Shown here piece after piece: positions 1 through 43,638 of a stretch of 64,000 nucleotides of DNA; the stretch's first letter is position 1; each line of letters starts with the position of its first letter. Origin of the DNA: a virus. The stretch lies in IMG/VR virus record IMGVR_UViG_3300028840_001735. One strand, given 5' to 3'. The notes under the pieces were generated by a model. That model was not told the origin of the DNA. It worked only from the letters and a program-made list of their open reading frames with translations, and searched no databases. The position numbers and the translations under genes are program-made.

Positions 1-540
1 GTCGGCATTCCTTAGATAGGCATACCTTAGGTCTGCATTCCTTAGGTCTGCATTCCTTAGGTCAGCATTCCTTAGATTTACATACCTTAGATAGGCATTC
101 CTTAGGTCTGCATTCCTTAGGTTTACATACCTTAGGTCGGCATCCCTTAGGTCTGCATTCCTTAGGTCGGCATACCTTAGGTCAGCATACCTTAGATCTG
201 CATCTACCAGCTCGGCATTCCTTAGCTCGGCATTCCTTAGGTCTGCACCCCTTAGGTTGGCATTCCTTAGGTTGGCATTCCTTAGATCTGCATCTACCAG
301 CTCGGCATTCCTTAGATCTGCATCTACCAGCTCGGCATTCCTTAGGTCTGCACCCCATAGTTTGGCGCCACTTAGGTTGGCATTCCTTAGGTTGGCGCCA
401 CTTAAATTAGCATACCATAGGTCGGCACCCCTTAGGTCAGCATACCTTAGATCTGCATCTACCAGCTCGGCATTCCTTAGCTCGGCATTCCTTAGGTCTG
501 CACCCCTTAGGTTGGCATTCCTTAGATCAGTATCTGGTTT
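1..540 (-). repeat. 15-bp tandem repeat array (coding; one unit = one pentapeptide)
   Basis: About 36 head-to-tail 15-bp units share the core ccttag (e.g. gtcggcattccttag, gtctgcattccttag). The 90-bp block 181-270 is identical to 436-525, an offset of 255 bp or 17 units. Confidence 0.95.
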
Positions 541-564
541 AATAACGTATCCGTTGACTTCCAT
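1..564 (-). CDS. pentapeptide-repeat protein, 3'-truncated by the window edge (absent from ORF track)
   Basis: ATG at 564-562. The reverse frame is open for all 188 codons down to nt 1 (no tta/cta/tca among plus-strand triplets 1-3, 4-6, ...). Translation MEVNGYVIKPDTDLRNANLRGADLRNAELRNAELVDADLRYADLRGADLWYANLSGANLRNANLSGAKLWGADL... gives about 35 uninterrupted A(D/N/E)LxX pentapeptides. Confidence 0.85.
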   Translation of the reverse strand, partial: MEVNGYVIKPDTDLRNANLRGADLRNAELRNAELVDADLRYADLRGADLWYANLSGANLRNANLSGAKLWGADLRNAELVDADLRNAELVDADLRNANLRNANLRGADLRNAELRNAELVDADLRYADLRYADLRNADLRDADLRYVNLRNADLRNAYLRYVNLRNADLRNADLRNADLRYAYLRNAD

Positions 565-573
565 TGTATCAAC

Positions 574-1863
574 CTATTCCGTGTAAAAATATTCATTTAA
601 AAATTCTATAACTTCCTTCATACGTTTACCCATTGTTAACCTACCAGGTTTCTTTTTTTCACTTTTCGCAGCAACTTGGTAAGACATAATCTGTCTATCC
701 GATAACTTCAAAACATCCGTAAAACCACCATCTTTCAAAGCAACTTTCAACCCATCATCTAATTCACCTGAAAATGAATGATTATGATCTGTTTGTTTTC
801 TGCCGTTAACAGCACGGCGCCGAACTTGTTTTTTTACTCTAACAAGTTCGGCAGATATCGTTTCAACGTTTTTATCAGCAGCCATAAAACTTAAAGTTGG
901 AAATTTCATTTTTGTGAAATTGTTATCGATCCAATAACGAACAACATCTTCAGGTGTCCTTTGAAGTTCAAGACACAAAATAGATAACTTAAGTGCCGAT
1001 GAATCATTTGATTTTACATCTTTGTAAAATGCACTTCCAATCGTTTTGTATCGTTCTGATTTATAAACTCTTATAAATTCTTTAATCATTTGTTTCTCTA
1101 AATCGTTTTGAATTTTCTTTCGTTCTTTAAGTCTCGGCTTAGATTTTAAGATCTGTAACATTCTAGATCTGATTGATGATTTAGGTTGAAATAGTTTTTT
1201 AGACGAACCGTTAGTGTTATTCGGTTTAATCTGCCTTCTGGCTGTCTGCTCCCTAAGCCGCTTGATTTTGTCAAAGTCGCGCTTATCACTTATCTTATCA
1301 TCCCTATTCTTTAACTTATTCTGTTTTTTAACTGGGTTTACTTTTTTAACTATTTTACTATCCGTGTTTAAATTAATTTTTAAATTGTCATTAAAACTAC
1401 AATTATTAACTATAAGCAAATCAGACCGTTTCAAAAACGGTTTCTGAAACGGTTTCGGAAACGGTTTCAAAAACCTAATAATTTGTTTATAACACTTATA
1501 CTTTAAACGGCATTTTGGCAATTCGTTCCATGCTTTTTTCCATGCTTTTACAACGTTCGGATTAGGTGGTTTATTGTAGTATATTTGAGTAGGTATCCAT
1601 ACCAATCCAGCGTTCCAATCTACCTCTATTAAACCCTTGTTTATAAGCTCTCTACACACTTTATCGAAGTCTTTAACGTTCCAATTGAAACGATCTATAA
1701 TTGTTCCTTTCCTAATTTCAAACAAACCAGGTATAATTCCTGATTCTTTAGCCGTCATTAAATAGATTAAAAGTGATTGCGCGTTCGGTTGTGGTGACGA
1801 TAACGTCCTAAACGTTTCATCATTCCAAATCGTTTTGTTTATTGTTGTGTGTTTAGTTGCCAT
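574..1863 (-). CDS. hypothetical protein; loosely replication-organiser/winged-helix-like N-terminus, Lys/Arg-rich centre
   Basis: 429-codon ORF with an ATG start. Its stop lies 9 nt before the next ATG. The N-terminal ~120 aa (TIWNDETFRTLSSPQPNAQSLLIYLMT...GLIEV) resembles phage DnaD/replication-organiser-type DNA-binding regions only loosely. No catalytic motif was seen. Confidence 0.4.
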   Translation of the reverse strand: MATKHTTINKTIWNDETFRTLSSPQPNAQSLLIYLMTAKESGIIPGLFEIRKGTIIDRFNWNVKDFDKVCRELINKGLIEVDWNAGLVWIPTQIYYNKPPNPNVVKAWKKAWNELPKCRLKYKCYKQIIRFLKPFPKPFQKPFLKRSDLLIVNNCSFNDNLKINLNTDSKIVKKVNPVKKQNKLKNRDDKISDKRDFDKIKRLREQTARRQIKPNNTNGSSKKLFQPKSSIRSRMLQILKSKPRLKERKKIQNDLEKQMIKEFIRVYKSERYKTIGSAFYKDVKSNDSSALKLSILCLELQRTPEDVVRYWIDNNFTKMKFPTLSFMAADKNVETISAELVRVKKQVRRRAVNGRKQTDHNHSFSGELDDGLKVALKDGGFTDVLKLSDRQIMSYQVAAKSEKKKPGRLTMGKRMKEVIEFLNEYFYTE

Positions 1864-1872
1864 TGTAATCTT

Positions 1873-2202
1873 TTAAAGTCTAATGAAACGATTATTTTTA
1901 TCTAAAATTGCACGTTTTTTAATTTCAATATGAATAGGTGATCTATCATGTTCTAACCGTTCATACAATTTAACAAATCCACACATACGCAATTCGTTCA
2001 ATAACGATCTTAATCTACCTCTACTATATTTGAATTTTTTAGATAGTGTTTTTAAACCGCTTTCTAATTCTTTATCTGTACAAAACATCAAACGAATCCA
2101 TATAGCAAACGCCGGTGGACTCATCTGATCGTATGCATCTAACAGATCAACACCTTGCCACGAACGTTTTTTACTACCTTTATTAACCGGACGTACAAAC
2201 AT
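1873..2202 (-). CDS. hypothetical small protein, winged-helix-like
   Basis: 109 codons with an ATG start, first gene after the 440-bp non-coding gap. The segment LKTLSKKFKYSRGRLRSLLNELRMCGFVK looks like a wHTH recognition region. This is a weak call. Confidence 0.35.
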   Translation of the reverse strand: MFVRPVNKGSKKRSWQGVDLLDAYDQMSPPAFAIWIRLMFCTDKELESGLKTLSKKFKYSRGRLRSLLNELRMCGFVKLYERLEHDRSPIHIEIKKRAILDKNNRFIRL

Positions 2203-2253
2203 ATTTTTAGAGAATCTCCCGTTTCCGTCTATTTGTTCTACTGTGATAAAACA

Positions 2254-2282
2254 AATATAAAAGAACTAAATATGATAAACAA
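2254..2282 (-). promoter_or_regulatory. candidate sigma70-type promoter for the 2202 operon
   Basis: Minus strand reads TTGTTT (2282-2277), 17 nt, TATATT (2259-2254), about 50 nt upstream of ATG 2202. The AT-rich context makes chance matches likely. Confidence 0.2.
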
Positions 2283-2512
2283 AAAAGTAACGTATCTTTT
2301 AAATAGCTCTGGGGAAAACAGAAGATTCTCTAAAAACACATTACCTTTTCTATTTGTCATCCTTTTTCCTTTTATAGCTTTATCACAGTAGATAGACACA
2401 ACCATACACTACCCCTACCCCTACAATCAAGTATTTTCTCAAAAAAAATTATTTACTTTTAAAAACTAAATAATTTTATAGGTAGCCGTGCTTTAGTATT
2501 GACTTACAGAAT

Positions 2513-2529
2513 AGCAATGTTACATTGCT
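2513..2529. promoter_or_regulatory. perfect 8+1+8 palindrome (operator-like)
   Basis: The sequence agcaatgt-t-acattgct lies inside the non-coding gap, next to a TTGACT...TACATT string. Confidence 0.3.
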
Positions 2530-2597
2530 AATTACAAAGCTCTTATTCCTTTCGAGTTTTGTACCTTTCTGTGTGTTATTGTTGTAGTGTTTCATAT

Positions 2598-2632
2598 TAT
2601 AAAGCCCTTGGTTATGAGACTAGGGCTTTATA
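2598..2632 (-). terminator. hairpin after the last lysis-module gene (weak terminator candidate)
   Basis: tataaagccct, 13-nt loop, agggctttata: an 11-bp stem starting 11 nt beyond the stop at 2643. There is no U-tract on the minus strand; cttttaaa follows on the plus strand. Confidence 0.3.
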
Positions 2633-2642
2633 CTTTTAAAGG

Positions 2643-2945
2643 CTAGTTATTTAAACGTTCACATTCATCAACTTCATTGCATGTTTTTGCTGTAACACGG
2701 CAATCAAGATCCCAATTAACTATACCGCTACTCTGAACGTTTTGACATACTTCAATACATGTAGCGCCTTCTAAAGTAGGTAAAGCCCAACTGCAATCAA
2801 GTTGTTCACCACGTTTACAAACATCATGACAACTTGGATTAACAACTGGTTCGATTTCGTTTTGAACTGGTTTTTGTGTTCTAGTTATACAACACGACAA
2901 AACACACAAGAATAAACTTGACATTAATAATTGTTTTATAATCAT
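2643..2945 (-). CDS. Cys-rich secreted protein, possible lipoprotein
   Basis: Signal-like N-terminus MIIKQLLMSSLFLCVLSCC with a lipobox-like VLSC. There are 8 Cys in the ~75-aa mature part. The start overlaps the upstream peptidase stop as ATGA. Confidence 0.55.
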   Translation of the reverse strand: MIIKQLLMSSLFLCVLSCCITRTQKPVQNEIEPVVNPSCHDVCKRGEQLDCSWALPTLEGATCIEVCQNVQSSGIVNWDLDCRVTAKTCNEVDECERLNN

Positions 2946-3721
2946 TTAAGTACCGGTGAATTTTCTACTACCCAAAAATCACGACAATAAGAAGATACAA
3001 TATAATCGTATGAAAATTTACAATATCCGCCGTCTTTCCAATCTGTTCCCCAAGAGTTTACAATATCAAAAGATCTTGAATCGTAACCGACGACTAACAT
3101 CGCGTGGCCACCGGCAATTGCGTCTTTATCTTCGGGCGGTACGGCGATATCGAAATCACCACGTATAAATTTGTTAGTTATCAACGCACCAAAGGATACT
3201 GTTCTACCTTCCGAAATAGCGCGTTTAATAGCCGTTATGCGCTTATAACCGCTTTGATATATGCGATAGTACCTAACAGGGGTTCGCTGATCGTGCGCAC
3301 TCATAAAGGCATCTGTAGCCGGCATAATAGACCAACGATATTCACCATTAACCTTGTCATGTAAATAAGGCCATGAATCTTCAGGTGGGTATCCTAACTT
3401 ATCAATAGCAGTGAATAGAGTTCTGAGGTAAGTACCTTCATCTAAATGCACTGCACTATGCTGAGCCCTGGATAAATAGTATCCCCACAGCCTAGAACCT
3501 AACTTAGGGTTAGTAATTCCTTGACGTTTATGATCTGCGCGTATCTGTTGAAAAACAGCATTAGCAACACATGTATTCATATTGCCTTGATCTAAAACAG
3601 ATACGATAAAAGAACGATTAGAAGCCGATGATTCTAATACATCTAAACTTAACAGATCATCGGCATTCCAATCTTGTTTTTCATTATTCCTTTTAGGACG
3701 ATCCGGTATCCAACCAAGCAT
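2942..3721 (-). CDS. papain-like (C1 family) cysteine peptidase
   Basis: DQGNMNTCVANA (Gln six residues before Cys), GGHAMLVVGYD and VNSWGTDWKDGGY match papain Gln19/Cys25, His159 and the Asn175-Ser-Trp-Gly motifs in the right order. No signal peptide is present. Confidence 0.75.
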   Translation of the reverse strand: MLGWIPDRPKRNNEKQDWNADDLLSLDVLESSASNRSFIVSVLDQGNMNTCVANAVFQQIRADHKRQGITNPKLGSRLWGYYLSRAQHSAVHLDEGTYLRTLFTAIDKLGYPPEDSWPYLHDKVNGEYRWSIMPATDAFMSAHDQRTPVRYYRIYQSGYKRITAIKRAISEGRTVSFGALITNKFIRGDFDIAVPPEDKDAIAGGHAMLVVGYDSRSFDIVNSWGTDWKDGGYCKFSYDYIVSSYCRDFWVVENSPVLK

Positions 3722-3725
3722 ACTA

Positions 3726-4154
3726 TTAATACTTTAACGCAAGTGGTTTAGGAATAACTAATTGTTCAGGAGATAATGAAAGCGTATCGTTTAAATTAGT
3801 TGCTTCTTTTATTCCTAATGGTTTAATCAATACTAACAATTGTTGATATGCTTCTTTAAACGCTTGAAACGCTTCGGCAATCTCTTCTTTACTAAGGTTT
3901 TCGGCACCTTGTGTAACTCTAATCGCTACATTTAAAGACGTCCTTGCGATAGATAAAACCTCGTTTATTTTTGCTTGTTTTTCTGGATTTGGATTCATTA
4001 TAAAATATCTATCTACATATTCTTCAATATTATCCAGAATAATCACGGCATCTAAAACAGCAGTGATCACCGTTGGTAATGTTGACAATACTGCTGAACA
4101 ACCTAACAACTGTACAAATAAAACAACACAAAACAACTTTTTTATATTATCCAT
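3726..4154 (-). CDS. lipoprotein, possible o-spanin-like component
   Basis: N-terminus MDNIKKLFCVVLFVQLLGCSAV carries the lipobox LLGC, and the rest is helical. At 142 aa it is larger than typical o-spanins. Confidence 0.35.
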   Translation of the reverse strand: MDNIKKLFCVVLFVQLLGCSAVLSTLPTVITAVLDAVIILDNIEEYVDRYFIMNPNPEKQAKINEVLSIARTSLNVAIRVTQGAENLSKEEIAEAFQAFKEAYQQLLVLIKPLGIKEATNLNDTLSLSPEQLVIPKPLALKY

Positions 4155-4170
4155 TTTTATATCCCTTCTT

Positions 4171-4650
4171 TCAATAACAGTCTAAATCACTGCAAACTTC
4201 TTGCGGAATTTTAGACTGTAAACGTTTTATGTTTTTACGCCTTATTCTTTCAATAGCTTGATCGCGTTCATTTTGGCAACGTTCAGAATTGCGAATGTTA
4301 CATTTAAATTTTTCATTTACTATACGTCGCGCTTCTCTGACAGCATAATCCCTATGTTGTACTGTTTGAAGTGCAGTTACTTTATCATCTAATTGTTTGA
4401 CGTTTTCTGCATTAACGCTGATCTTTTTTTCTAATTGAACATGTTCAATATCGTTTTGTTTTCTAAACTTTTTAAATTCTTTACTATCTGCTAACAAGTA
4501 GTTTAGGTAAGTAGTTCCCCCTGTTCCACCTCCTAATAATACGCCGATTACAATTGTTATAGTACGCCAATTCATTGAAGCACCAGTTGAATCTACTCTT
4601 ATCGAACGGCGTTTACTATCTTTAGGTAAAACTTCATCATGTACAGGCAT
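4171..4650 (-). CDS. membrane-anchored coiled-coil protein, i-spanin-like
   Basis: A single N-terminal TM segment (WRTITIVIGVLLGGGTGGTTYLNYLL) is followed by a charged helical region with C-terminal Cys residues. The gene lies between the endolysin and lipoprotein genes. Confidence 0.4.
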   Translation of the reverse strand: MPVHDEVLPKDSKRRSIRVDSTGASMNWRTITIVIGVLLGGGTGGTTYLNYLLADSKEFKKFRKQNDIEHVQLEKKISVNAENVKQLDDKVTALQTVQHRDYAVREARRIVNEKFKCNIRNSERCQNERDQAIERIRRKNIKRLQSKIPQEVCSDLDCY

Positions 4651-4651
4651 G

Positions 4652-4852
4652 TCATTTCTCCTTTAGCTTTTTTATAGCGTTAATTTTAGCTTGGTTCATA
4701 CGATATATAGATTCATCTAATCTGTATCGTCGCTGTTTTATCATCAATTCTTTTCCAACAATTCGTTGTCGTTTCTTTTCTTTAATGTAACCCCTAAAAC
4801 GGAAAAGTAAACGATACAACAAAACAAAAACATGTTTGATTTTACTAAACAT
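4652..4852 (-). CDS. hypothetical small basic protein
   Basis: 66 codons with an ATG start; the stop is 1 nt from the next ATG. It competes with an overlapping alternative frame (see findings). Confidence 0.4.
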   Translation of the reverse strand: MFSKIKHVFVLLYRLLFRFRGYIKEKKRQRIVGKELMIKQRRYRLDESIYRMNQAKINAIKKLKEK

Positions 4853-4870
4853 TTTAAACCCAACATACTA

Positions 4871-5554
4871 TTAAACTCCAGTAGCGTATTGAAAGTGCAT
4901 ATCATCACGGCGTTTCCATTCACCGCCCCAACTGAAACCATGCCTTTTAAATATTTCTACTAGTTTGAAATCTATATCACCTCGTTTGCCCGGCGGATTA
5001 GTTGCCCAGTTTATATCACATGCAATTCCCCAAGTGTGTAAAGATATTCCACTACGTGGATTATGATTTTTATGTCTAGGCGACCAAGTTCCAAATTGTA
5101 CTATTTCATAATCTAGATCGGCGTCTAATACATCTTGTAATGCCGCTTCAAAAACATGAACTATCTTTTTATGAATCCATTTCTTACCCACAATCGGCAA
5201 GTCTACCTTTGCTATATTTTTACGCGCCCAATCTCCTAAAAGTTCTATTCTACCACCTAAAGTATCTTTATAAGCTAACGTCCCAAACGTTCTACATACT
5301 TCTAAATCGCCGTGCGGTACAGGAACAGTAGATTCTTTTGAAATTTTATCGTCTATTATATTTCTCATAGCTGATAAAGTATATATACCAACTTCACCGG
5401 TAACCATATATTTCTGCTGAAAAGCAATAACTGCCTTTTTAGTTTTTGGTCCAAAGTCAGCGTCGATCTTTGCTTTATATAATCCGAGATCATAAAGGAA
5501 TTTTTGAATCTCTTTTACTTTCCTACCCTTATCACCATATTTTATTTTATCCAT
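4871..5554 (-). CDS. endolysin: peptidoglycan-binding domain + M15 (VanY-type) zinc peptidase
   Basis: The N-terminus is PG_binding_1-like (GDKGRKVKEIQKFLYDLGLY..DADFGPKTKKAVIAFQ). The C-terminus carries SLHTWGIACD ... WGGEW..RDDMHF, i.e. the H-x-D and D-x-x-H zinc motifs. Confidence 0.8.
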   Translation of the reverse strand: MDKIKYGDKGRKVKEIQKFLYDLGLYKAKIDADFGPKTKKAVIAFQQKYMVTGEVGIYTLSAMRNIIDDKISKESTVPVPHGDLEVCRTFGTLAYKDTLGGRIELLGDWARKNIAKVDLPIVGKKWIHKKIVHVFEAALQDVLDADLDYEIVQFGTWSPRHKNHNPRSGISLHTWGIACDINWATNPPGKRGDIDFKLVEIFKRHGFSWGGEWKRRDDMHFQYATGV

Positions 5555-5569
5555 TTTATTTCCCCTTCT

Positions 5570-8284
5570 TTATTTCCTTTTTAAACTGGTCATTACATTC
5601 ATTCTAGAACCTACAAAAGCAAATAAATCATTACCATAAGTAACAGAGTATAAATATTCTTTATATCTGTCAATACGCATTTTTGCAACTTCATAAAATG
5701 TCATACAATTATTACTAACCCATATACCTTGTGATGTTTCACTAGTAGTTTCTGAGTAACCACCTACAATAACATATAAACCATTAGCATAAAATACAGA
5801 ATTAAAATTTGTGCTAGAACCTGCACCTGTTTTTCTTTGTGTCCATGTTGTACCGTCTGGACTTGTTTGTATTTCTAAATCATCACCTACAGCAACATAT
5901 AAACCGTCATCTTCACTATAATATACATCTCTAAAAGTATCTGTGTAACTACCTGCTGCTGTTCGTTGTGTCCATGTTGTACCATCTGGACTTGTTTGTA
6001 TTTCACCACCAACACCTACAGCAACAAATAAATCATCGTTACTACTATAACATACACCCATAAAACCATCACCATAACCTCCTGCTGGTGTTCTTTGTGT
6101 CCATGTTGTACCGTCTGGACTCGTTTGTATTTCACCACTATAACCTACAACAACATATAAATCATCAGCAAGACTATAACATATATCTCTAAAAATATCT
6201 GTGTAACTACCTGCTGCTGTTCGCTGTGTCCATGTTATACCGTCTGGACTTGTTTGTATTTCACCACTACCACCTACAATAACAAATAAATCATCGTTAT
6301 TACTATAACAACCTCCATAAAAATTCCCTGTATAACTTCCTGCTGGTGTTCTACGTGTCCATATTATACCATCTACACTAGTTTGAATGTTACCATCTTC
6401 ACCAACAGCAATAAATAAATGTTCATAACCTGTTTTATTATTAGAAAATATATGGTAAATATCTTCTGAAATATAATCTAAATTATCTCCAGTTGTAACT
6501 TGATACCAATTAAATACATCTGAACTTGTTTGTATTTCACCAGCAATTCCTACAATAACAAATAAATCTATTGAATCACTAGCACATACAGCATAAAAAT
6601 TTTCTTCACAATATTTATCTGCTGTCCTTTGATACCATGTTATACCATCTGAACTCCTCTGAATTTCACCATTTTCACCTACAGCAATATAAGAACCTCT
6701 TACACTTCCATAACATACATCTCTAAAATCATCTGTGTAACTTCCTGCTGCTGTTCGCTGTGTCCATGTTGTACCATTTGAACTTGTTTGTATTTCGCCA
6801 GTAGCTCCTACAGCAATATATAAATCATTGTCTTCACTATAACATATACCATAAAAAGTATCTGTGTAACTACCTGCTGCTGTTCGTTGTGTCCATGTTG
6901 TACCGTCTGAACTCGTTTGTATTTCGCCAGTAGCTCCTACAGCAACAAATAAATCATCATTGCTACTATAACATATAGCCCTAAAATTTCCGCTATAACT
7001 TCCTGCTGCCGTTCTTTGTGTCCATGTTGTACCGTCTGGACTTGTTTGTATTTCACCATCATCACCAACAGCAACAAATAAACCATCGTTATTACTATAA
7101 CATACACCCCTAAAACCACTTGTGAATCCTCCTGCTGCTGTTCGCTGTGTCCAACTTACACCATCTGAACTCGTTTGTATTGCGCCAGCAGTTCCTACAG
7201 CAACAAATAAATCATTGTTACTACTATAACATACATCATAAAAAACACCACCAAAACTACTACCAGCTACTCGTTGTACCCATGTTATACCGTCTAAACT
7301 CGTTTGTATTTCGCCAGCAGTTCCTACAGCAACAAATAAATTTATACCAATATCAGCATTGTTAGAACATACAGCTTGAAAGTTTCCATTATACCCTACA
7401 TCAAACTTCTGTTTTTCCCAATTTTCAACTTGCATACGTTTTAGTTTATTTACTTCATCGAACCAATCAGAACCTAAATCAGATAAAGAATAATTAATAA
7501 CATTTTGATTATCTGTTGCATCACTTGGAATAGTTGGCGGACTTCCTGAACCAGCACCAGTCACATATCCTATATACCAATAACCCGCAAGTGCGTGCAA
7601 TGTTTGATCGCTCTGTCTCGATACAGTTGGACCTAACATCAATACCGTATAATCCGCCGCCGTTTCACTTACTGTAGACTGTCCAAGTAATCCAGTAGTT
7701 GTGATCGTATTATTTCCACCACTATAAGAAACAGTACACGTTTCAATAGCAATCGCTTCAGTTGTAGCACCTATCGCCGGTGTATTTTTCCAGACTAAAC
7801 AACTCCGTCCGGTATGTTCACGATCACCGTATATCAACGAATTAACATTGAATGTTATATTCGTTCCGTTGTCAGTTACAGAAGTCGGCGTACCTGATTC
7901 ACCTATCGTTTCTTCCCACTGAAGATATTCTGGATAAGCTGTTCTAGCATTTATCTGTATACCACTTGGTTTAACATCATATTTTAACGCTATATCGTAA
8001 TTTGTTGAATTGACATTTTCTATTTGAACATCTGTACAATAAACATTACTAGTCAAATCATGTCCAGAACCATCAGTACCACTTTGACTTGTGAGATCTA
8101 TTTCATCATTTCCTGAAGCCGATATGACTACTTTTGTACTTCCAAACGTACCATCATCATCGTAAACCCTACTCAATACGTTCGCTAAAGAATTATTCAA
8201 ATAATCCAGAAAGTAATCTTTAAAACTTTCTGTACCTAGTAACTTTTTAGTTACTATATTAGTGTATTTATCTCCAGTAGTCAT
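5570..8284 (-). CDS. distal tail protein with Asp-box (BNR) beta-propeller repeats; receptor-binding candidate
   Basis: 904 aa. There are 12 clear and 2 degenerate ~41-aa units containing G(E)IQTS(P/S)DG(T)TW. The gene follows the gpJ/gpI-like baseplate genes. Confidence 0.6.
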   Translation of the reverse strand: MTTGDKYTNIVTKKLLGTESFKDYFLDYLNNSLANVLSRVYDDDGTFGSTKVVISASGNDEIDLTSQSGTDGSGHDLTSNVYCTDVQIENVNSTNYDIALKYDVKPSGIQINARTAYPEYLQWEETIGESGTPTSVTDNGTNITFNVNSLIYGDREHTGRSCLVWKNTPAIGATTEAIAIETCTVSYSGGNNTITTTGLLGQSTVSETAADYTVLMLGPTVSRQSDQTLHALAGYWYIGYVTGAGSGSPPTIPSDATDNQNVINYSLSDLGSDWFDEVNKLKRMQVENWEKQKFDVGYNGNFQAVCSNNADIGINLFVAVGTAGEIQTSLDGITWVQRVAGSSFGGVFYDVCYSSNNDLFVAVGTAGAIQTSSDGVSWTQRTAAGGFTSGFRGVCYSNNDGLFVAVGDDGEIQTSPDGTTWTQRTAAGSYSGNFRAICYSSNDDLFVAVGATGEIQTSSDGTTWTQRTAAGSYTDTFYGICYSEDNDLYIAVGATGEIQTSSNGTTWTQRTAAGSYTDDFRDVCYGSVRGSYIAVGENGEIQRSSDGITWYQRTADKYCEENFYAVCASDSIDLFVIVGIAGEIQTSSDVFNWYQVTTGDNLDYISEDIYHIFSNNKTGYEHLFIAVGEDGNIQTSVDGIIWTRRTPAGSYTGNFYGGCYSNNDDLFVIVGGSGEIQTSPDGITWTQRTAAGSYTDIFRDICYSLADDLYVVVGYSGEIQTSPDGTTWTQRTPAGGYGDGFMGVCYSSNDDLFVAVGVGGEIQTSPDGTTWTQRTAAGSYTDTFRDVYYSEDDGLYVAVGDDLEIQTSPDGTTWTQRKTGAGSSTNFNSVFYANGLYVIVGGYSETTSETSQGIWVSNNCMTFYEVAKMRIDRYKEYLYSVTYGNDLFAFVGSRMNVMTSLKRK
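5645..7387 (-). repeat. tandem ~123-126 bp coding repeats (propeller blades)
   Basis: Long near-identical strings such as cctgctgctgttcg(t/c)tgtgtccatgttgtacc recur near 5952, 6211, 6744, 6873, 7002 and 7131. Confidence 0.9.
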
Positions 8285-8303
8285 AACTAAACACCATTCC
8301 TAT

Positions 8304-8657
8304 TTAACTAACTTTTCCAAACTTAGGTAGAACATTAACAACCATTTCGAGATTACCTGAACCACTAGTATGATCCCAAGCAATTCTAGCATATCTATAT
8401 TTACAAACTACCTCTTCATAACCAGAACCAGGTGTACCACCTGGATTGATAGCGAATGTAAACGGTATCTCTTGCCAACCTACACCACCACCGGCAAGAG
8501 AATCGTCGTTTGTGACTTCTAAATCAAAATCGCCAGATAAATCGTTTGTCCAAGTATACGTGATACTAAATTCGTCAGAATATCTTAAATCAATAACTAA
8601 ACTGTTTGTATCGGCGCCTATAACACCACCGTCAAAAATAGTTCCTGCTGTTTTCAT
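8304..8657 (-). CDS. hypothetical protein (small beta-rich tail-associated)
   Basis: 117 codons with an ATG start, packed between the gpI-like and propeller genes. Confidence 0.5.
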   Translation of the reverse strand: MKTAGTIFDGGVIGADTNSLVIDLRYSDEFSITYTWTNDLSGDFDLEVTNDDSLAGGGVGWQEIPFTFAINPGGTPGSGYEEVVCKYRYARIAWDHTSGSGNLEMVVNVLPKFGKVS

Positions 8658-8669
8658 TTTATATTTCTC

Positions 8670-11600
8670 CTATGTTACAGAATACGGTAAAGAAACTTTA
8701 CCAAAAACATTTGCATTGCCGTCTAATTTGCTACCTAAATAAAAAAACATCACTGTCTGAACGTATTGAGCCCAACGATTAGTCGTATCAGATACACCGC
8801 CGGTTGTAGCGCCCTGTACTTCAATCGTCCCAAGTGTTGGATCTAACGTTATAACCATCGGTTGATAAGCACTAAACGTTATTACTGTAGTATCGGCAAC
8901 TAAAGATCCGTTTGCATACATTTCTATTTTACCGGCAGCACCGGCAGCACTATTATATCTCAAAAATACTTCTTGCCCTGTAGTTGAATTGTATAAAGTA
9001 TAAATATAAAAGTCTTGTTCCGGTGCTTCGGTTGTTCCGAATTCTGGCTCCCATAAAATCGAATGCCTTTGTTTACTTATACTTGTAGAAAAACTACTTA
9101 AAGCTAAACTCGCCGTTCCAGCTTTACGCATACAAGGTTCTTCTCTGTCAGCAGGTTCTGAATTTGGTTCTACCCTAGCGTGCCATAAATATAAACCACT
9201 TGAACCATCACCTTGATAACTATTAGAACCATCCTCGTCTGCCAAGTATATATAAACAGAACTCGAACCAGAAGAAGTAGTTGTGTCAACTATCCAACAC
9301 CTATACCAATCATCACCTACATATTCTATACCAGAACTTTCAAGATTAGTTGTTGTACCTACGGCGCCGTTTGTTAAATCAAAATATGCTGATGGTAAAG
9401 CACCACCGCTAAACTGTCCGCTTGAAGCAAAGTTTATTCTGATAAAATCGCGTTCGCCGGCTTTAGCATATACACTAAATACATACTGTGTAGCATCAGA
9501 ATAAGAAATACTAGCAGAATAAGCAGCATGAACGTCGTCTGAAGAATCTTCTATCAGTTTATCTGCCGTAAGTGTTCCATTCGGTGAAACTATAGAATTC
9601 TCTGATATAGTCGCTTGCGCTTTAGTCCAGTCACTATCATCAAGTTCATTCGGATGTGTTACCATATTTACTGTTGGTAAACTGATAACACTAGGACGAT
9701 CGCCGATCTCTAGTTTAGCATTCCATAAATACAAACCACTTGAACCATCGCCGTTATATGATTCATTTCCTTCAGTGTCACACAAATAAAATGTACATGG
9801 CGTAGACGATGCAAGATTAGATTCCTGTGATATATAACATCTATACCAACCACCACCAACATCTTCTATTCCATAATTGCTTGGACTACCTTGTGCACCT
9901 GGACTAGTACCTATAACACCATTAGTTAGATCAAAATCAACATTTGTTTCATCTGTAAACCCTGTTGTTGCTATATTCATTCGTAACCAAGTTCGTTCAC
10001 CGGCTTTAGCGTATACACTAAAACAATAATCCGAAGAACCGTCCGGCGTTTTATATTGTTGCATTACATGATTGTTTGATGATGTACTATCCTCTACTAG
10101 TTTATCTGCCGTAAGCGTTCCATCCGGTGCCCTTGTAGTATTCGCCGTCACAGTAGTTCTAGTTTTTGTCCAGTCACTATGATTAAACTCTTGAGCCCTT
10201 GTAAAAAGATTTGTGTTTGTATGTATTGGACTTGTCGGAAAATAACCTTTTTCTATTTGTGTATTCCATATATAAGCACCACTTGATCCATCGCCTAAAT
10301 ATGTTACTGTTTCGTCATATTCTGTCACATATAAATAAGCTGATGTTGCTGTTTCTGAATCACTAGTTGCTATAACCCAACATCTATACCAATCATTTCC
10401 AATATCATATATGCCAGAACTATCTATTCCGGCACCCTCTGTTCCTACTTCGCCGTTTACTAAATCAAAATGGCAATATGTATTAACCGGGAAACCGGCA
10501 GAAAGAACTATTTGAATATCACGTCCATTACCTTTAGCATACACACTAAAACAATATTTTGAACTACCATCAGGAGTAAACGCCGAACTTTGGTATACTG
10601 TATGTGAAGAATTACTAGAGTCTTCTCTGATTCTACTAGCTGTTTCTGTATTGTTCGGCGCAGTTATAGTAATGCTAGGAACATCAACATTACCAACAGA
10701 CCAAGTAGAACCATCTAAACGTTGCGATTGATCTAAATAGTTAGATGCTTCACCTTCACTTAGTAAAGCTAATCTGTTATATAGCCTACCATAAATAGCC
10801 ATATTAGAATTATAATAATCACTTACTGAATTTTCGTTAATGTTATACCTTGGACCTAACCAATTACTATAACTAACATCTAAAATATCGGCATAGCTTT
10901 CTAATTCAGTATCAACTGTATCTATTGATTCTATTTCTTCACAACATATGTAACAATCACGTACAAGAAAACCAACACCATCAGGGTAAACTAATGGTGA
11001 ATAATCTGTAGTTTCAATAACCAGATTACCGTCTATAAAAATACTTATCTTTAGTTGGATGCCTTCCCAACACAATTGAACTCTAAATCCATAATATATA
11101 TCCTCATATAGTTCTATGGTTGTAGAGGTGAGAATTTCAGATAAATATCTACTTTTATCATAATACTTTCTTATATATAATGTGTTCGGTATATAGTTTA
11201 TACAATAACCATTTACGATATAAGATTCAAAATTGCTACCAGTTGTTTCAGACTTGTTTATAAAAAGGTTTATATTAGGATTTGTATCTGTTTCATGATA
11301 TTTAATTCTAGCATACGTAATCTGAGATACCCATTCTGAAGATACTACATTATTCCATGCAACTTCTATATCATCATTATCATTTTCACCTACTTGCATA
11401 TAACCATCTTCAACAGTTATAGAATATGTACTTGAATCGCTCCATTGTGAATCATCACTGTCTATAATAAAGCGATCTAAAAATCTTAGATACGTAATCT
11501 CCCATGATTCACCAGTCGCACGGAAAATATTATTCATTAAATTTTCAACTAATGTTCTGTTCAAACTACCTGAATCAACTATTCTTAGATTAGATATATA

Positions 11601-12077: not shown

Positions 12078-14260
12078 TATCCCGCCGTTATAACAATAGT
12101 TCCGGCAACCGGCAATTCTCTAGATAACAATTCTAGATTAGCGGCAAACCCGTTGATAGTTAAATTCTCTACCCTTGTAATATTTGAATCTGAAGCAAAT
12201 ATTTCATGAGTTATTCTTGATAAATAAACATCCTCACCAAACTGCCATTCAAATTCAACACCGTCTGATTTTCTTGTATCAGGTTGTAGTAATGCTGTAA
12301 GACTATCCTCTATAGCATCTACATCTAAAGCATCATAAACAGTAGCGGTGATATTCACAACCTTTTGAGTATAGTTTGTAGAAGTAATCTCTTGATTAGC
12401 TACAAGTCTTTTAGGTTTTACCGGTGACGAATACCGATCACCGTTGAAATATTCATCTAACGCCGATAACTGTGCAGAAGTAGCAACCCCACCGCCGGCA
12501 GTTACTACAACTAATTCAACAGTCTTAGGACCAAAACCACCTTCAACGGCATAACCTCTTATAAATATTTTTGAATTCGTGTTTTCATCTATGTAATCCA
12601 ACAACATAGATTCTATATCGTCTGGACTAATTGCAACCGTTTTAGTTCTCAAAGATGCTGGACCAGATATTTTTGCAAGTTCTAAACTCTCTGTACTTGC
12701 CGATTGCGATTCTTGCCAACCAACCGCCGGCCTTGGGTTCCATACTGAAGACACATCGGTTAAACCAGACTTGTCTACCACTATAGTGTTTGCACCAACA
12801 TTACCATCAGCATCGGCATCATAACGATATACAGAAGCTATAGTTGATCCACTTCCTGGTATCTTTCCTCTAATCCCATCACCAAAAGTAAATGTTGCCC
12901 GATCGTCTTCACCTAGTGAAACAGTGTAATGTTTACTGACAGATGTACTCTGTAGAAAATCATCAACCCTAGTCCATTCAACAGAATCAACCGTTACAGT
13001 TTCCGATTCATCTATAAAACCTGTTTTTACAGTAGAAAATTCTTGATCCGCTGAACCATCAGAAGTACCCATGTTAGATTCTGTAAACGTTTGTCCCTGG
13101 ATCATAGATACTTTAACATATTGATCACCTTGATCAATTACTATTCGATCTATTATAGGTGCTGTTCCGGCAGTATAAGATATAACACGATAACGTATCC
13201 AGTAATTTGTTTCACCGTTTATCTCTGCCGTTTCCCAACTCTCTGTTAAATTTTCTGGTAAAGTATATTCAACAGTATCAGAAGAAGATAGATTAGATGT
13301 GTTATCTGTAACGTCGCTTATTTCTTTCCAAGCACTACCTACAGTATAATGAGTTTCATCGGTATCAAGATCGGCAAGTTGCTGTCCTAATAGTGTTGTG
13401 GTTGTTATATAATTCTTGTTTCCTTCTCCGTAATCTGCCCATTCTGAGATTACATCTTCATAAGTACCTGAAGCGTCTAGCTGAACCCTAACAGATGTAC
13501 CTGTCCGTTCGCTAGTGCCAAGAATACCATCAACGGCAAAACGTAAAGTTGAACCTACAAGAGTAACATCATCTGGATTATCATCTAAATAATCGCCGTC
13601 GTAATACTCCCATAGCCCAACTAATCCACTTGAACCTGTGTCAAGTGTTATATCTAACTGATCCCACATCACCCCGCTATGTCCTATATATAAACAGTCT
13701 CGATTAGCAGGAACAGACCAAGGTGTAAAATCGTCGCCGGGTGCGCTGTTTGCTTCTGTTGTATAATCTGTATATGTATCTGTACTTTGATCGTATGCAA
13801 ACACGTTTGTAAGATCACCTGTTTCACTTGCGGCGACAGTTAAAGCCGTTAACGCTTCATAATATATAGTGGTTCCTGTAACTTGCGCTTTAGTTGCTAC
13901 TTTTGAATTCGCTGAAACTACTACTGTAGAAGCCGATAAAGCACCGGTTAATTTCATAACTATATCGACTTCTGCCGGTGATACCGAACTCAAATCATAG
14001 TCGATTAGCTTCAACATGTTCCTGATATTTTCTGGTAACTGTGCTGTGACTAATGTGCTCTCATTAGCTACCATATCAGCAAGTGTATTATTTAAATGTC
14101 CTACAAGGGCAAACGCCCTTAGTAATTGTATCAAAGGTTCTTGTGGAGATTCATCTGTTAATTCAGGTAAATTAATTCTTTTAAACTGGATTAGTGATTC
14201 TAAAATTTCACCGTAATAAAATGAAGCCCAATTAAAACTAGGTATTGAAATAGTTGTCAT
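12077..14260 (-). CDS. baseplate J-like protein (P2 gpJ / Mu gp47 class)
   Basis: 727 aa, positioned between the gpW-like and gpI-like genes. The N-terminal region ...PQEPLIQLLRAFALVGHLNNTLADMVANESTLVTAQ fits the Baseplate_J pattern. Confidence 0.6.
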   Translation of the reverse strand: MTTISIPSFNWASFYYGEILESLIQFKRINLPELTDESPQEPLIQLLRAFALVGHLNNTLADMVANESTLVTAQLPENIRNMLKLIDYDLSSVSPAEVDIVMKLTGALSASTVVVSANSKVATKAQVTGTTIYYEALTALTVAASETGDLTNVFAYDQSTDTYTDYTTEANSAPGDDFTPWSVPANRDCLYIGHSGVMWDQLDITLDTGSSGLVGLWEYYDGDYLDDNPDDVTLVGSTLRFAVDGILGTSERTGTSVRVQLDASGTYEDVISEWADYGEGNKNYITTTTLLGQQLADLDTDETHYTVGSAWKEISDVTDNTSNLSSSDTVEYTLPENLTESWETAEINGETNYWIRYRVISYTAGTAPIIDRIVIDQGDQYVKVSMIQGQTFTESNMGTSDGSADQEFSTVKTGFIDESETVTVDSVEWTRVDDFLQSTSVSKHYTVSLGEDDRATFTFGDGIRGKIPGSGSTIASVYRYDADADGNVGANTIVVDKSGLTDVSSVWNPRPAVGWQESQSASTESLELAKISGPASLRTKTVAISPDDIESMLLDYIDENTNSKIFIRGYAVEGGFGPKTVELVVVTAGGGVATSAQLSALDEYFNGDRYSSPVKPKRLVANQEITSTNYTQKVVNITATVYDALDVDAIEDSLTALLQPDTRKSDGVEFEWQFGEDVYLSRITHEIFASDSNITRVENLTINGFAANLELLSRELPVAGTIVITAG

Positions 14261-14263
14261 TTG

Positions 14264-14644
14264 TTACACTCCAGATGAAAATGTTTTCTGGAAACTAAAA
14301 GGAGTATCTGTTTCTAAGTTTATAAAATTACAACTTAAAGTCAATTCGTTTCCTTCAGTATTTGAATTGAATTTTACAGTATTCATCATCAACTTGTATA
14401 GTTTGTCTTCTTCAAACTCTTTTGATATTTTACGCAATCGGTTTACAATACTTGCCCTAAGTTGTGTATTATTCAAACCAAAAATCATAACCTCACCTAA
14501 AGCAACATCCTGTTGAAAAGCATTTTCATTGTCACCATCACCAAGCGCAAGATTTATAATCTTTCTAGCTTGATCGTCACCGTCTGTAGTATCTGTACCT
14601 CCTAATGAATTTACTCTTAATGGTAATGATAAACCTTTAGCCAT
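14264..14644 (-). CDS. baseplate protein, gpW/gp25-like
   Basis: 126 aa, positioned between the gpV-like and gpJ-like genes. It shows a loose GPW_gp25 pattern (LPLRVNSLGG...IINLALG). Confidence 0.45.
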   Translation of the reverse strand: MAKGLSLPLRVNSLGGTDTTDGDDQARKIINLALGDGDNENAFQQDVALGEVMIFGLNNTQLRASIVNRLRKISKEFEEDKLYKLMMNTVKFNSNTEGNELTLSCNFINLETDTPFSFQKTFSSGV

Positions 14645-14653
14645 AATTATACC

Positions 14654-15313
14654 TCATAAACTTGTAACTAACTGTGAATAAACCGTAGGTGGTAATGGAA
14701 TAGCCGGTGGTCCACTTGGTCCCATCATTGTTGGGTGTGTATGTGCATCAAAAATAGCTTTAAATAATTGCCCTAACACTATAGGCTCTGTAGCATTTTC
14801 ACCTAACTGTATCGAATTATCAGAAATAACTATTTTTACAGCACCGTTATTATAAGAAATTGTAATCGTACCTGCTGAATTATCCATAATAAACTGATGC
14901 CCACCTACACAGTTTATCGTAATCAATTCAGAACCTTCAGTATCATCAAAAATAAATGTATGCCCAGCAGGAGTAGCAAAACCACGGCGTTTACCATAGT
15001 TAGTCAGAAACTCTTCGTTTATAGGTGTATCAGAATTATAATATCTTTTACCAAGCCAACACGGATTAGGCGCTTCAATAAATGCTTGCCCATAACTCTG
15101 ATCTTTATCGCTACCAGTTACAACTTCTATTTCAACTTCTTCCCCTATATCTGGAATATAAAACCAACCCCAATCCAATTTCGGATAGATCCAAGTATTA
15201 TATTTCACCTCATCTGAACCAAATAAACCAACACAAGAAACCTGAATACCGCCACGCTGATCAGGATCTTGGTTGTCTAATACAGTTGCATCATATGTTT
15301 CTATATTATTCAA
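14654..15313 (-). CDS. baseplate spike/assembly protein V-like (gp5/VgrG OB-fold type)
   Basis: TTG start overlapping the upstream TGA, with SD AAGGTGA 5 nt upstream. N-terminus ATVLDNQDPDQRGGIQV and C-terminal HTHPTMMGPSGPP are typical of gpV-class spikes. Confidence 0.6.
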   Translation of the reverse strand: MNNIETYDATVLDNQDPDQRGGIQVSCVGLFGSDEVKYNTWIYPKLDWGWFYIPDIGEEVEIEVVTGSDKDQSYGQAFIEAPNPCWLGKRYYNSDTPINEEFLTNYGKRRGFATPAGHTFIFDDTEGSELITINCVGGHQFIMDNSAGTITISYNNGAVKIVISDNSIQLGENATEPIVLGQLFKAIFDAHTHPTMMGPSGPPAIPLPPTVYSQLVTSL

Positions 15314-35079: not shown

Positions 35080-35772
35080 TTATCCTGTTACTTTCGATTT
35101 AAGAACTTCAGGTAACGGAATCCTTGAATCTTTATTTCCTGAACTAAATTTACAAATAATAACCTGTTCTTCAGGAATAATTCGATCGCCGGAATAACCA
35201 TCTGGTAGTTTGTCTTGTATAAAATCAAGAATCTCGTTTACTACCGTCACCTGTCCTCTATACGCTTCTATATATTCTACACTGTTTTTAAAAGCAGTTT
35301 GAACATCTTTTTCTAGCTGTTCTTGTGCTTTCTTTTTTACTAATTCAAATTCAGCTTGCGCTTCATCTATCAACGGTTGTTTGATTTTATTTGCTATCTC
35401 CTTTGTTTTCGACTCTTTAGCTAAAAGTTTATAAGAAAACAATTCACCAATTTCTATTCTTATTTCTTCTTTATTTCCGTTATTCTTTTCTGTTTCTTGT
35501 TGTCTAGCTTTGTTCCTTTTTTCTCTTGCTATAGCCCTCAATTCACTAGCGGTTAACTCTTTAGGTTCTTCTGGTTTAGGTTCTTCTGGTTTAGGTTCTT
35601 CTGGTTTAGGTTCTTCTGGTTTAGGTTCTTCTGGTTTAGGTTCTTCTGGTTTAGGTTCTTCTGGTTTAGGTTCTTCTGGTTTAGGTTCTTCAACCTCAAC
35701 AGATTTTTCGGCTTCTACCGCTACCAATTTCGGCTTCTTTTTTGTTTTCTTTACTTTCTTTTTTGTAGCCAT
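35080..35772 (-). CDS. (EEPKP)n-repeat protein with coiled-coil C-terminal half
   Basis: 230 aa. A Lys-rich N-terminus is followed by 8-9 consecutive EEPKP units and then a helical charged region. Confidence 0.6.
   Translation of the reverse strand: MATKKKVKKTKKKPKLVAVEAEKSVEVEEPKPEEPKPEEPKPEEPKPEEPKPEEPKPEEPKPEEPKPEEPKELTASELRAIAREKRNKARQQETEKNNGNKEEIRIEIGELFSYKLLAKESKTKEIANKIKQPLIDEAQAEFELVKKKAQEQLEKDVQTAFKNSVEYIEAYRGQVTVVNEILDFIQDKLPDGYSGDRIIPEEQVIICKFSSGNKDSRIPLPEVLKSKVTG
35561..35695 (-). repeat. perfect 15-bp tandem repeat (ttaggttcttctggt x8 plus one partial)
   Basis: The repeat is read directly from the sequence and encodes the EEPKP units. Confidence 0.95.
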
Positions 35773-42750: not shown

Positions 42751-43638
42751 TTACAGCAAGCCAGTCCAAATATTACCATCTGTATTCTTTTGTACCAGTT
42801 TATCTTCTGAAGACTTAGGCGCCGGACGTGTTTCCTCGATCTTAGAAACGCGTCCGCTAATATCTTCAAGGCTCTTTTTGATCGGTGCAAAAACTTCTTC
42901 GATCGACTTAGTAACAGAATCAGTATTTTCACCTTTAGATACCCACTTAACATCAGCAGGTAACGCTGTTTTAGTTAGATCAGAAATAATACCTTTTACA
43001 GAATCGGGATCTACACTTACCAACATACCTAACAGTTGTTCGGTAGTCTTTTTAAGTGTAGCTGTTCTCTCACCTGTAAACCGTTTATTCTTTTCAAGAT
43101 CTTCAACATTAAGAAGTTCGCCGTTTTCTCCCAACTGAAAAACGATAGACTTTTTAACTTTATTTTTCTCTTCATCCTCATCTTTTTCTTTATCATCGGA
43201 TTTTTTCTTGTCCTCTGATTCTTCCTTCTCTTTTTCTTTATCCTTATCCTCTGCTTTTTTCTTTTCTTTGTCGTCTTCTTCCTTTTCTTTATCCTCTGCT
43301 TTTTCAACTGGATAATCGCCAGGTTTTAGTTGACTAAGAAAAGTAACTATAGAATCAATATCCTCATTAGGAACACTCTCACTATCTGAACTTTTGTTCA
43401 AGTATTCCTTGATGTTAGTTATTGACTTAACTAGATCCACCGGCAAACCGGCTTTTTCTAGCGTTTCGTTTGTTAGTCCATTATTAGGATCAAACGCACC
43501 CATGGTTTTAACCTCCTCATTTCTTTTCCAGAGTAAAAATTCACGCAAGATTGCCGGTTTATCAACTATGGAAACCTCACGAGTATCTAAACCGAGAATT
43601 TCTCGGGCATCTTTTTTGCTTTTATTTTTAGTAATCAT
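42751..43638 (-). CDS. scaffolding protein
   Basis: 295 aa, with a highly charged helical centre (KEKEEDDKEKKKAEDKDKEKEKEESEDKKKSDDKEKDEDEEK). It lies between the protease-domain gene and the capsid gene, with an ATGA overlap upstream. Confidence 0.65.
   Translation of the reverse strand: MITKNKSKKDAREILGLDTREVSIVDKPAILREFLLWKRNEEVKTMGAFDPNNGLTNETLEKAGLPVDLVKSITNIKEYLNKSSDSESVPNEDIDSIVTFLSQLKPGDYPVEKAEDKEKEEDDKEKKKAEDKDKEKEKEESEDKKKSDDKEKDEDEEKNKVKKSIVFQLGENGELLNVEDLEKNKRFTGERTATLKKTTEQLLGMLVSVDPDSVKGIISDLTKTALPADVKWVSKGENTDSVTKSIEEVFAPIKKSLEDISGRVSKIEETRPAPKSSEDKLVQKNTDGNIWTGLL

Follow-up and report, generated by a model that had tools for sequence, protein, structure and literature searches.

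The window analysed here is a stretch of 64,000 nucleotides from the virus record IMGVR_UViG_3300028840_001735. At its left end, on the minus strand at 1..564, lies the 5′ part (188 codons) of a gene for a pentapeptide-repeat protein, the 3′ end of which falls beyond the end of the contig. The gene is recognised from its open frame, a match to the Pfam family PF00805, an AlphaFold2 model and Foldseek structure searches. Most of it is a tandem array (1..525, minus strand) of 35 units of 15 bp with the consensus CTAAGGAATGCCGAC, read as L-R-N-A-D, which corresponds to about 8.75 coils of four units. The array was delimited with Tandem Repeats Finder (period 15, 35.0 copies and 73% matches at window 1-525), a table of the units, column conservation and codon bias. 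In the direction of reading it is preceded by 13 codons (526..564, minus strand) for an N-terminal cap, MEVNGYVIKPDTD, which closes the first coil; the motif is common to relatives of the protein, and the model places strands at its residues 2-3 and 6-7. An initial annotation of this DNA had described a 15-bp tandem array at 1-540. The array itself was recovered, but its extent has to be corrected to 1-525, as the 13 N-terminal codons stand outside it.

The reading frame of the array is well defined. On the minus strand, translation from the ATG at 564-562 stays open for 188 codons, down to window position 1, in agreement with the annotation, whereas the other five of the six frames contain 1, 2, 4, 31 and 35 stop codons across the array. 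The product of each unit is L-x-x-A-x, with Leu in 35 of 35 units and Ala in 33 (Val in the other two). In the pentapeptide-repeat fold, Leu and Ala are the residues that face inward. The three outward-facing positions are variable and accept R/V/W/S, N/Y/G/D and D/N/E/Y/K. Retention of the inward residues together with variation of the outward ones points to selection on a folded protein, not to a chance open reading frame (ORF) in a repeat. A non-coding repeat was also considered, and it is ruled out by the single open frame and the protein-like conservation pattern. In the ORF list only 257..586 on the plus strand appears here, because ORFs running off the source go unlisted; it is an antisense artefact, as the annotation had recognised. 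The frame was also said to leave the window. It does so, but the contig itself ends at the same place (see below).

Membership of this phage protein in the pentapeptide-repeat family, as originally proposed, is clear from a search with the PF00805 hidden Markov model, which matched in six stretches with 226.6 bits against a cut-off of 20.2 (E 1.1e-68). An AlphaFold2 model of the 188-residue fragment, built on an alignment of 49 sequences, has one short strand per five residues, a predicted local distance difference test score (pLDDT) of 93.8 and a predicted template modelling score of 0.86. In this model, the fragment is predicted with high confidence to form a right-handed quadrilateral β-solenoid rod. 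The β-helix expected from the family also agrees with Foldseek matches to solved repeat structures (E 4e-14, template modelling score up to 0.85). When PDB entries are ranked by Foldseek, designed consensus solenoids come first, followed by HetL and Np275/276 (E 4e-14 to 2e-12, 34-47% identity), and QnrB1, MfpA, AlbG and EfsQnr stand lower (E 1e-8 to 1e-5, 13-26% identity). The same order is given by phmmer against PDB sequences, where the best consensus-type matches reach E 3e-45 to 1e-18. The best matches in both sequence and fold are thus the cyanobacterial proteins HetL/All3740, Np275-Np276 and Alr5209 and the designed 'beta1' solenoids derived from such proteins. The likeness to these consensus-type proteins comes from the consensus repeat, not from caps or context, and they are cellular whereas the present protein is viral. 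The cut-off of the Alr5209 model NF052603 (113 positions) is exceeded (198.3 bits against 125), but only the sum of four overlapping repeat matches, in a protein of other length and context, reaches this score; it is probably a repeat-summing effect and is not taken as membership or orthology. The proteins nearest to the fragment in sequence and in fold are of the consensus repeat type, and their functions are either unknown or unrelated to gyrase.

At the DNA level, G+C content is 49% in the array against 37.6% in the window, and 19 of the 35 units are distinct. The annotation had stated that nucleotide identity between units is higher than the protein motif requires, and codon use bears this out. 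Leu is encoded by CTA in 30 of the 35 units and Arg by AGG in all 27 cases, whereas elsewhere on the minus strand of the window, in 55 further ORFs, CTA accounts for only 11% of Leu codons and AGG for 19% of Arg codons. A 90-bp block had also been reported as duplicated exactly 255 bp apart. The duplication is real and its identity extends to 96 bp: the first copy, 175..270, is identical to the second, 430..525, at an offset of 255 bp or 17 units. This exact duplicate supports the view that a segment of the array was duplicated recently. The use of one Leu and one Arg codon throughout and the exact duplication of a 96-bp block show that the window array expands and alters through duplication of entire units and of blocks.

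Hyper-regular DNA is not peculiar to the window gene. Three other phage or prophage pentapeptide-repeat genes, each with one Leu codon and almost one Ala codon throughout, are equally or more uniform, and mean unit identity is 83% in the array of L002 (a relative whose neighbours are given below) against 74% in the window array. Length differences are found in a prophage family with the members P0001, P0068 and P0004, which are 325, 290 and 275 amino acids long. Their terminal domains are identical in P0001 and P0068 and close in P0004, and the difference between P0001 and P0068 is seven whole units. Single-codon arrays and whole-unit length variants together indicate that growth by unit or block duplication is a habit of the family.

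The array also accounts for the truncation of the gene. The first base of the ENA contig k141_152921 (96,422 bp) corresponds to window position 4, and over window 4-4702 the two sequences are identical; the Logan contig L001 (k=31), assembled from SRR6963591, ends at window 451, inside the second copy of the 96-bp duplicate. Almost certainly, then, the source contig ends at window position 1, and the sequence stops there because short-read assemblies break inside the array. Two assemblers end only 3 nucleotides apart, a sign that the read graph branches here; the unseen part may contain another long duplication, or the population may be heterogeneous. Breaks of this kind are frequent among relatives. 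In 80 IMG/VR loci with a relative of the fragment (L014-L093), the distance from match to contig end is at most 50 bp in 12 cases, where 0.4 would be expected, and at most 1 kb in 24, where 8.4 would be expected.

The full protein is presumably longer than the visible 188 residues, and its 3′ end was sought in several ways. A megablast search of window 1-8000 against 50,697 phage records gave no match, nor did exact DNA patterns in IMG/VR. The upstream neighbour of the repeat gene encodes a λ O-like protein, for which no relatives were found in IMG/VR and JGI metagenomes that recover the missing part; the identical O-like protein is present on contigs of at most 98,550 bp, with no other relative in the protein homology search. 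Partial products of 38 and 188 amino acids were absent from the collection by exact look-up. Homology with the fragment itself led to a best match of 64% identity, which has other end domains.

Two further 15-bp arrays in the window bear on the reliability of unit counts. The first is a perfect array encoding (PEEPK) x8.8 at 35560-35691, within the minus-strand ORF 35080-35772 for a 230-residue Lys/Glu-rich protein; the ENA contig lacks exactly 90 nucleotides (six units) of it and is otherwise identical, and a Logan contig ends inside it. The second, also perfect, encodes (KPVEK) x4.9 at 59410-59483, near the C-terminus of an SNF2-type helicase (minus-strand ORF 59110-61158). It is three units (45 nucleotides) shorter in the ENA contig, giving 667 instead of 682 amino acids, and a Logan contig ends at 59454. 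These differences may be real slippage or assembly collapse. As both arrays differ between assemblies that are otherwise 100% identical, unit counts from short reads are unreliable here. Variable copy number of the window array, which the annotation had expected, is plausible, though its support is indirect.

Similarity of most database matches to the fragment is confined to the repeats, and the cap is the part that marks closer kin. The cap motif ME(V/I)NGYxIKPxxxL recurs in four other proteins. P0059 (252 amino acids) and P0101 (224 amino acids) end in the domain DUF5758 (PF19062; E 1e-21 and 3e-23, respectively), and P0078 (255 amino acids) in a Cys-rich domain without Pfam match. The fourth, L045/L046 (136 amino acids), was outside the Pfam scan; by eye it ends in a short cap and shows no C-terminal domain. 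P0059 and P0101, phage or prophage proteins with both PF00805 and PF19062, resemble the window protein most in plan: the same cap is directly followed by highly regular A(D/N)LRx units, identity over the repeats is 52-63%, and the genes are set among small early-type phage genes. Likewise, the DUF5758-type family members L010 and L011 have DNA arrays with a single codon per position, as in the window. A difference is found in array size, with at least 35 units in the window protein against about 24-27 in P0059 and 22-23 in P0101. The highest-scoring database matches are P0001, P0068 and P0004, with 64-65% identity that is again confined to the repeats. This family shares the hyper-regular 15-bp array, the whole-unit length differences and a place in the early region beside replication or recombination genes, but its 87-residue N-terminal domain and 66-residue Cys-rich C-terminal domain are both unrelated to the window protein. 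As for DUF5758, the motif EC..GIHF occurs in 55 of the best 120 matches, and a model of the domain (pLDDT 88.8) is small and all-β; a structure search of the PDB with this model matched nothing (best E 1.5). Because most cap-sharing proteins have one, a non-repeat C-terminal domain such as DUF5758 is, on balance, the more probable ending of the window protein too.

The gene directly upstream, on the same strand, encodes a replication initiator of 429 amino acids (574..1863, minus strand), which is λ O-like or DnaD-like according to tblastn and PHROG 1701. Its residues 11-128 are 39.8% identical to the 'DNA replication protein O' of Citrobacter phage Chris1 (E 3e-24 by tblastn), and the match to PHROG 1701 (DnaD-like) has an E value of 2e-6. 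Inside this gene there is a putative replication origin (1321..1474). It consists of four 12-bp iterons at 1428-1474 (period 12, 3.9 copies by Tandem Repeats Finder), which carry an internal dyad symmetry, GTTTCnGAAAC, and of an adjoining stretch of 80% A+T at 1321-1420. The λ origin lies inside gene O. By analogy, the iterons and the A+T stretch look like a λ-type origin embedded in the initiator gene, placed at residues 130-180, just after the N-terminal domain. The window as a whole is uniform in strand: an SNF2 helicase, the large terminase, portal, capsid, sheath-like and tail proteins and an endolysin are all encoded on the minus strand, and the genome is that of a myovirus-like tailed phage of about 98 kb.

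Between the TAG stop of the initiator gene and the ATG of the repeat gene there are 9 nucleotides. No promoter-like or terminator-like site was found between the two genes, and counts of such sites in the region were no higher than in shuffled sequence. The two frames are the same, with three codons between them (window 565-576), so that a single protein made by read-through of the TAG was considered. It was ruled out: TAG ends 10 of 55 genes here and no suppressor tRNA was found, and the homologue in the related phage L006 aligns to residue 427 of 429 with its ORF stopping a few codons later. The nearest IMG/VR relatives, L006 and L008, whose tail protein is about 62% and endolysin 44-48% identical, share the gene order lysin, ORF109 and O-like gene. 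In both, small ORFs and a DnaC-like ATPase (Walker-A motif, by eye) follow the O-like gene, and a repeat gene is absent at the equivalent position. Given its absence there, the repeat gene counts as an accessory insertion into the replication module. The annotation had placed it at the end of a transcription unit, which finds no support, as the gene begins 9 nucleotides past the initiator and the replication module continues beyond this point in the relatives. The helicase encoded upstream of ORF109 and the O-like gene also differs between these two phages, with 780 amino acids in L006 (11212-13554) and 481 in L008 (12086-13531); the extra residues of the L006 protein, about 300, look like an intein-type insertion.

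Genes of this kind are common in phages. Six peptide patterns were enough to recover at least 107 IMG/VR contigs with relatives; the pentapeptide-repeat genes of phages also make up several PHROG families, and many proteins in BFVD already carry this annotation. Usually such genes have replication and recombination genes around them. In L002, for example, the repeat gene lies between Cro-like regulators and genes for SMC_N, AAA_24, helicase and primase proteins. It is two genes downstream of Mu Gam in L010, two genes past a Lin1244_N-domain gene in L011, and directly behind an SNF2 helicase in L096. L098, a metagenomic phage contig of 24 kb, has three paralogous pentapeptide-repeat genes with DUF5758 (8001-8759, 13497-14042 and 14556-15215) among small early-type ORFs. 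In a Pfam survey, made without formal background control, of 149 ORFs of at least 150 amino acids that lie no more than 3 kb from one of 45 IMG/VR repeat genes, the families met most often were ERF, ResIII/SNF2/Helicase_C, further pentapeptide repeats, DnaB, AAA_24, RecU, methylase and PD-(D/E)XK. Structural families were almost absent from the top list. On the function of phage pentapeptide-repeat proteins or DUF5758, the searchable literature gives annotation-level mentions only. For example, gene CKA15_017 of a Listeria phage is annotated as a pentapeptide-repeat protein with HHpred-level resemblance to gyrase-directed repeat proteins (PMC12282133), and ORF9 of Eggerthella phage PMBT5 is mentioned as one in an annotation (PMC9394477).

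Taken as a whole, the window most likely contains a genuine accessory gene of the replication module, the array of which was cut by assembly and the protein of which acts as an intracellular binding rod. The N-terminal cap and the at least 35 uninterrupted A(D/N/E)LxX units that follow would fold into a right-handed quadrilateral β-solenoid rod, and this rod would work within the host cell during infection, along with the replication genes. Being rigid, it might occupy or bridge a protein that handles DNA, for which the candidates are a topoisomerase or nuclease of the host and replication factors of the phage itself. An early intracellular role is favoured because in L002, L010, L011, L096 and L098 the repeat genes are surrounded by genes for repressors, replication and recombination. 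Several points weigh against this interpretation. The view of gene and protein is drawn here from sequence and predicted structure, and the arrangement of units in window 1-450 comes from two assemblies, possibly of the same reads. The C-terminal architecture has been guessed from the four proteins with the same cap, and one of these (L045, 136 amino acids) appears to have no extra domain; the PDB search with the DUF5758 model gave no match from which an activity could be surmised. The neighbour survey, as stated, had no formal background control.

Other roles can be imagined for such a rod. One, raised in the initial annotation, is that of a DNA mimic of the Qnr/MfpA/AlbG type, which would bind host gyrase or topoisomerase IV in place of a DNA segment and inhibit or protect it during infection. 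This hypothesis, derived only from the shared fold, is reasonable; with the curated family models failed it is possible but rather unlikely. The fragment shares with Qnr, MfpA, AlbG and McbG the right-handed quadrilateral β-helix, with some 8-9 coils visible here and 183-214 residues in the solved MfpA and QnrB1 chains, and the Foldseek matches to QnrB1, MfpA, AlbG and EfsQnr place it in the same fold class. A replication module, where DNA topology matters, would be a fitting place for such a protein; Gip and Igy are examples of other gyrase inhibitors from phages (PMC10886550), and the Listeria phage protein mentioned above has HHpred-level likeness to gyrase-directed proteins (PMC12282133). 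Like these resistance and immunity proteins, the fragment is mildly acidic overall, and its net charge and isoelectric point (-3 and 5.18) are close to those of QnrB1 (-6 and 5.0) and MfpA (-5 and 5.33), calculated from sequences confirmed to be identical to the PDB chains. It has 32 acidic and 29 basic residues, and on every one of the four faces the two kinds balance. Net charge was tried as a test of DNA mimicry and discarded, since QnrB1 and MfpA are themselves no more acidic than the fragment; as the values resemble each other, charge neither supports nor excludes mimicry.

The curated family models weigh against this hypothesis. The fragment scores 58.9 bits with the NCBIfam Qnr model NF033086 (cut-off 240), 34-52 bits with the QnrA, B, C, D, E, S and VC models (cut-offs 425-500) and 70 bits with the MfpA model NF000349 (cut-off 360). 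Identity in structural alignments is 13-26% against 40-47% to consensus-type repeat proteins. The window units are also far more regular than those of the gyrase-directed proteins, and in the visible 188 residues the 35 uninterrupted units keep an exact five-residue periodicity without any Qnr-type loop. QnrB1 has loops A and B. One or two protruding loops are found in some proteins of this fold, and proteins of the Qnr/MfpA/AlbG type typically dimerise through C-terminal helices (PMC10886550). The cap-sharing relatives end instead in DUF5758 or Cys-rich domains, so that the C-terminal architecture of the window protein is likely to be another one. Moreover, Qnr, MfpA, AlbG and McbG are chromosomal or plasmid-borne resistance or immunity factors, whereas the window gene belongs to the replication module of a lytic-type phage, and the fold serves many unrelated functions (HetL, PipB2, NleL, DotG).

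A further idea is that highly regular repeat genes, often with DUF5758, form a widespread class of phage early genes connected with replication and recombination modules, and that their arrays are slippage-prone contingency loci; a decoy or ruler for host DNA-handling enzymes or defence proteins would be tuned through the length of the rod, and the window gene, with at least 35 units and a putative population-level branch point at the contig end, would be an actively varying example. This idea is unlikely. Like the gyrase-directed mimic, an anti-defence decoy is a more specific version of the binding-rod idea, and it is improbable. Here the solenoid would mimic DNA or another ligand against a host nuclease or defence system, in the manner of Ocr, ArdA or Gam, and a rod length set by slippage would serve as an arms-race device. 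An accessory gene that is missing from L006 and L008 would suit this role, as would the position of such genes in early regions (the L010 copy being two genes downstream of Mu Gam), the whole-unit length variants of the P0001/P0068/P0004 prophage family and the nature of the array as a hotspot of duplication. Against it, the searchable literature shows no anti-defence activity for any pentapeptide-repeat protein, the near balance of acidic and basic residues on all four faces does not favour a decoy, and PADLOC gave no match, its library being one of defence and not of anti-defence proteins. Finally, an assembly artefact or a decaying pseudogene, in which unit order, unit number or the 96-bp duplicate is mis-assembled or the true gene is interrupted, is very improbable even though all three available assemblies end inside the array and the PEEPK and KPVEK arrays differ by 6 and 3 units between otherwise identical assemblies, for two different assemblies agree over 561 nucleotides, the ENA contig name implies k=141, which exceeds the length of the 96-bp repeat, so that spanning reads could resolve it, the imperfect units (19 of 35 distinct) anchor the path, and an unbroken frame goes together with the conservation of a textbook case.

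The accessory gene with a binding rod as its product is thus retained as the preferred interpretation. The window gene is real and belongs to a known and common kind of phage gene; by itself it opens no new mechanism. What it adds concerns the class. Such genes sit preferentially among replication and recombination genes, in this case directly behind a λ O-like initiator. Their arrays systematically break short-read assemblies, so that in the catalogues many phage 'fragments' end in one of them, and their lengths cannot be trusted. In addition, a sub-family can be recognised by the cap GYxIKP, often together with DUF5758, a small β domain without a solved structural relative.

Some other genes of the window have unusual features. 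ORF 5570-8284 (904 amino acids), located between the tail genes and the endolysin, contains tandem repeats of 129 bp (43 amino acids) at 5833-7341 with higher-order periods of 258 and 387 bp. It has a weak BNR/YCF48-type match and may be a β-propeller receptor-binding protein. ORF 43635-47159 (1174 amino acids) combines a DNA-methyltransferase-like region (residues 316-596, approximately) with a C-terminal match to head maturation protease/protease PHROGs (residues 1050-1172, approximately). The large terminase (51138-53741, 867 amino acids) is split: PHROG matches cover residues 65-306 and 697-861, with about 390 unmatched residues between them, and a faint LAGLIDADG_3 match in this product suggests an intein or a homing-endonuclease insertion.

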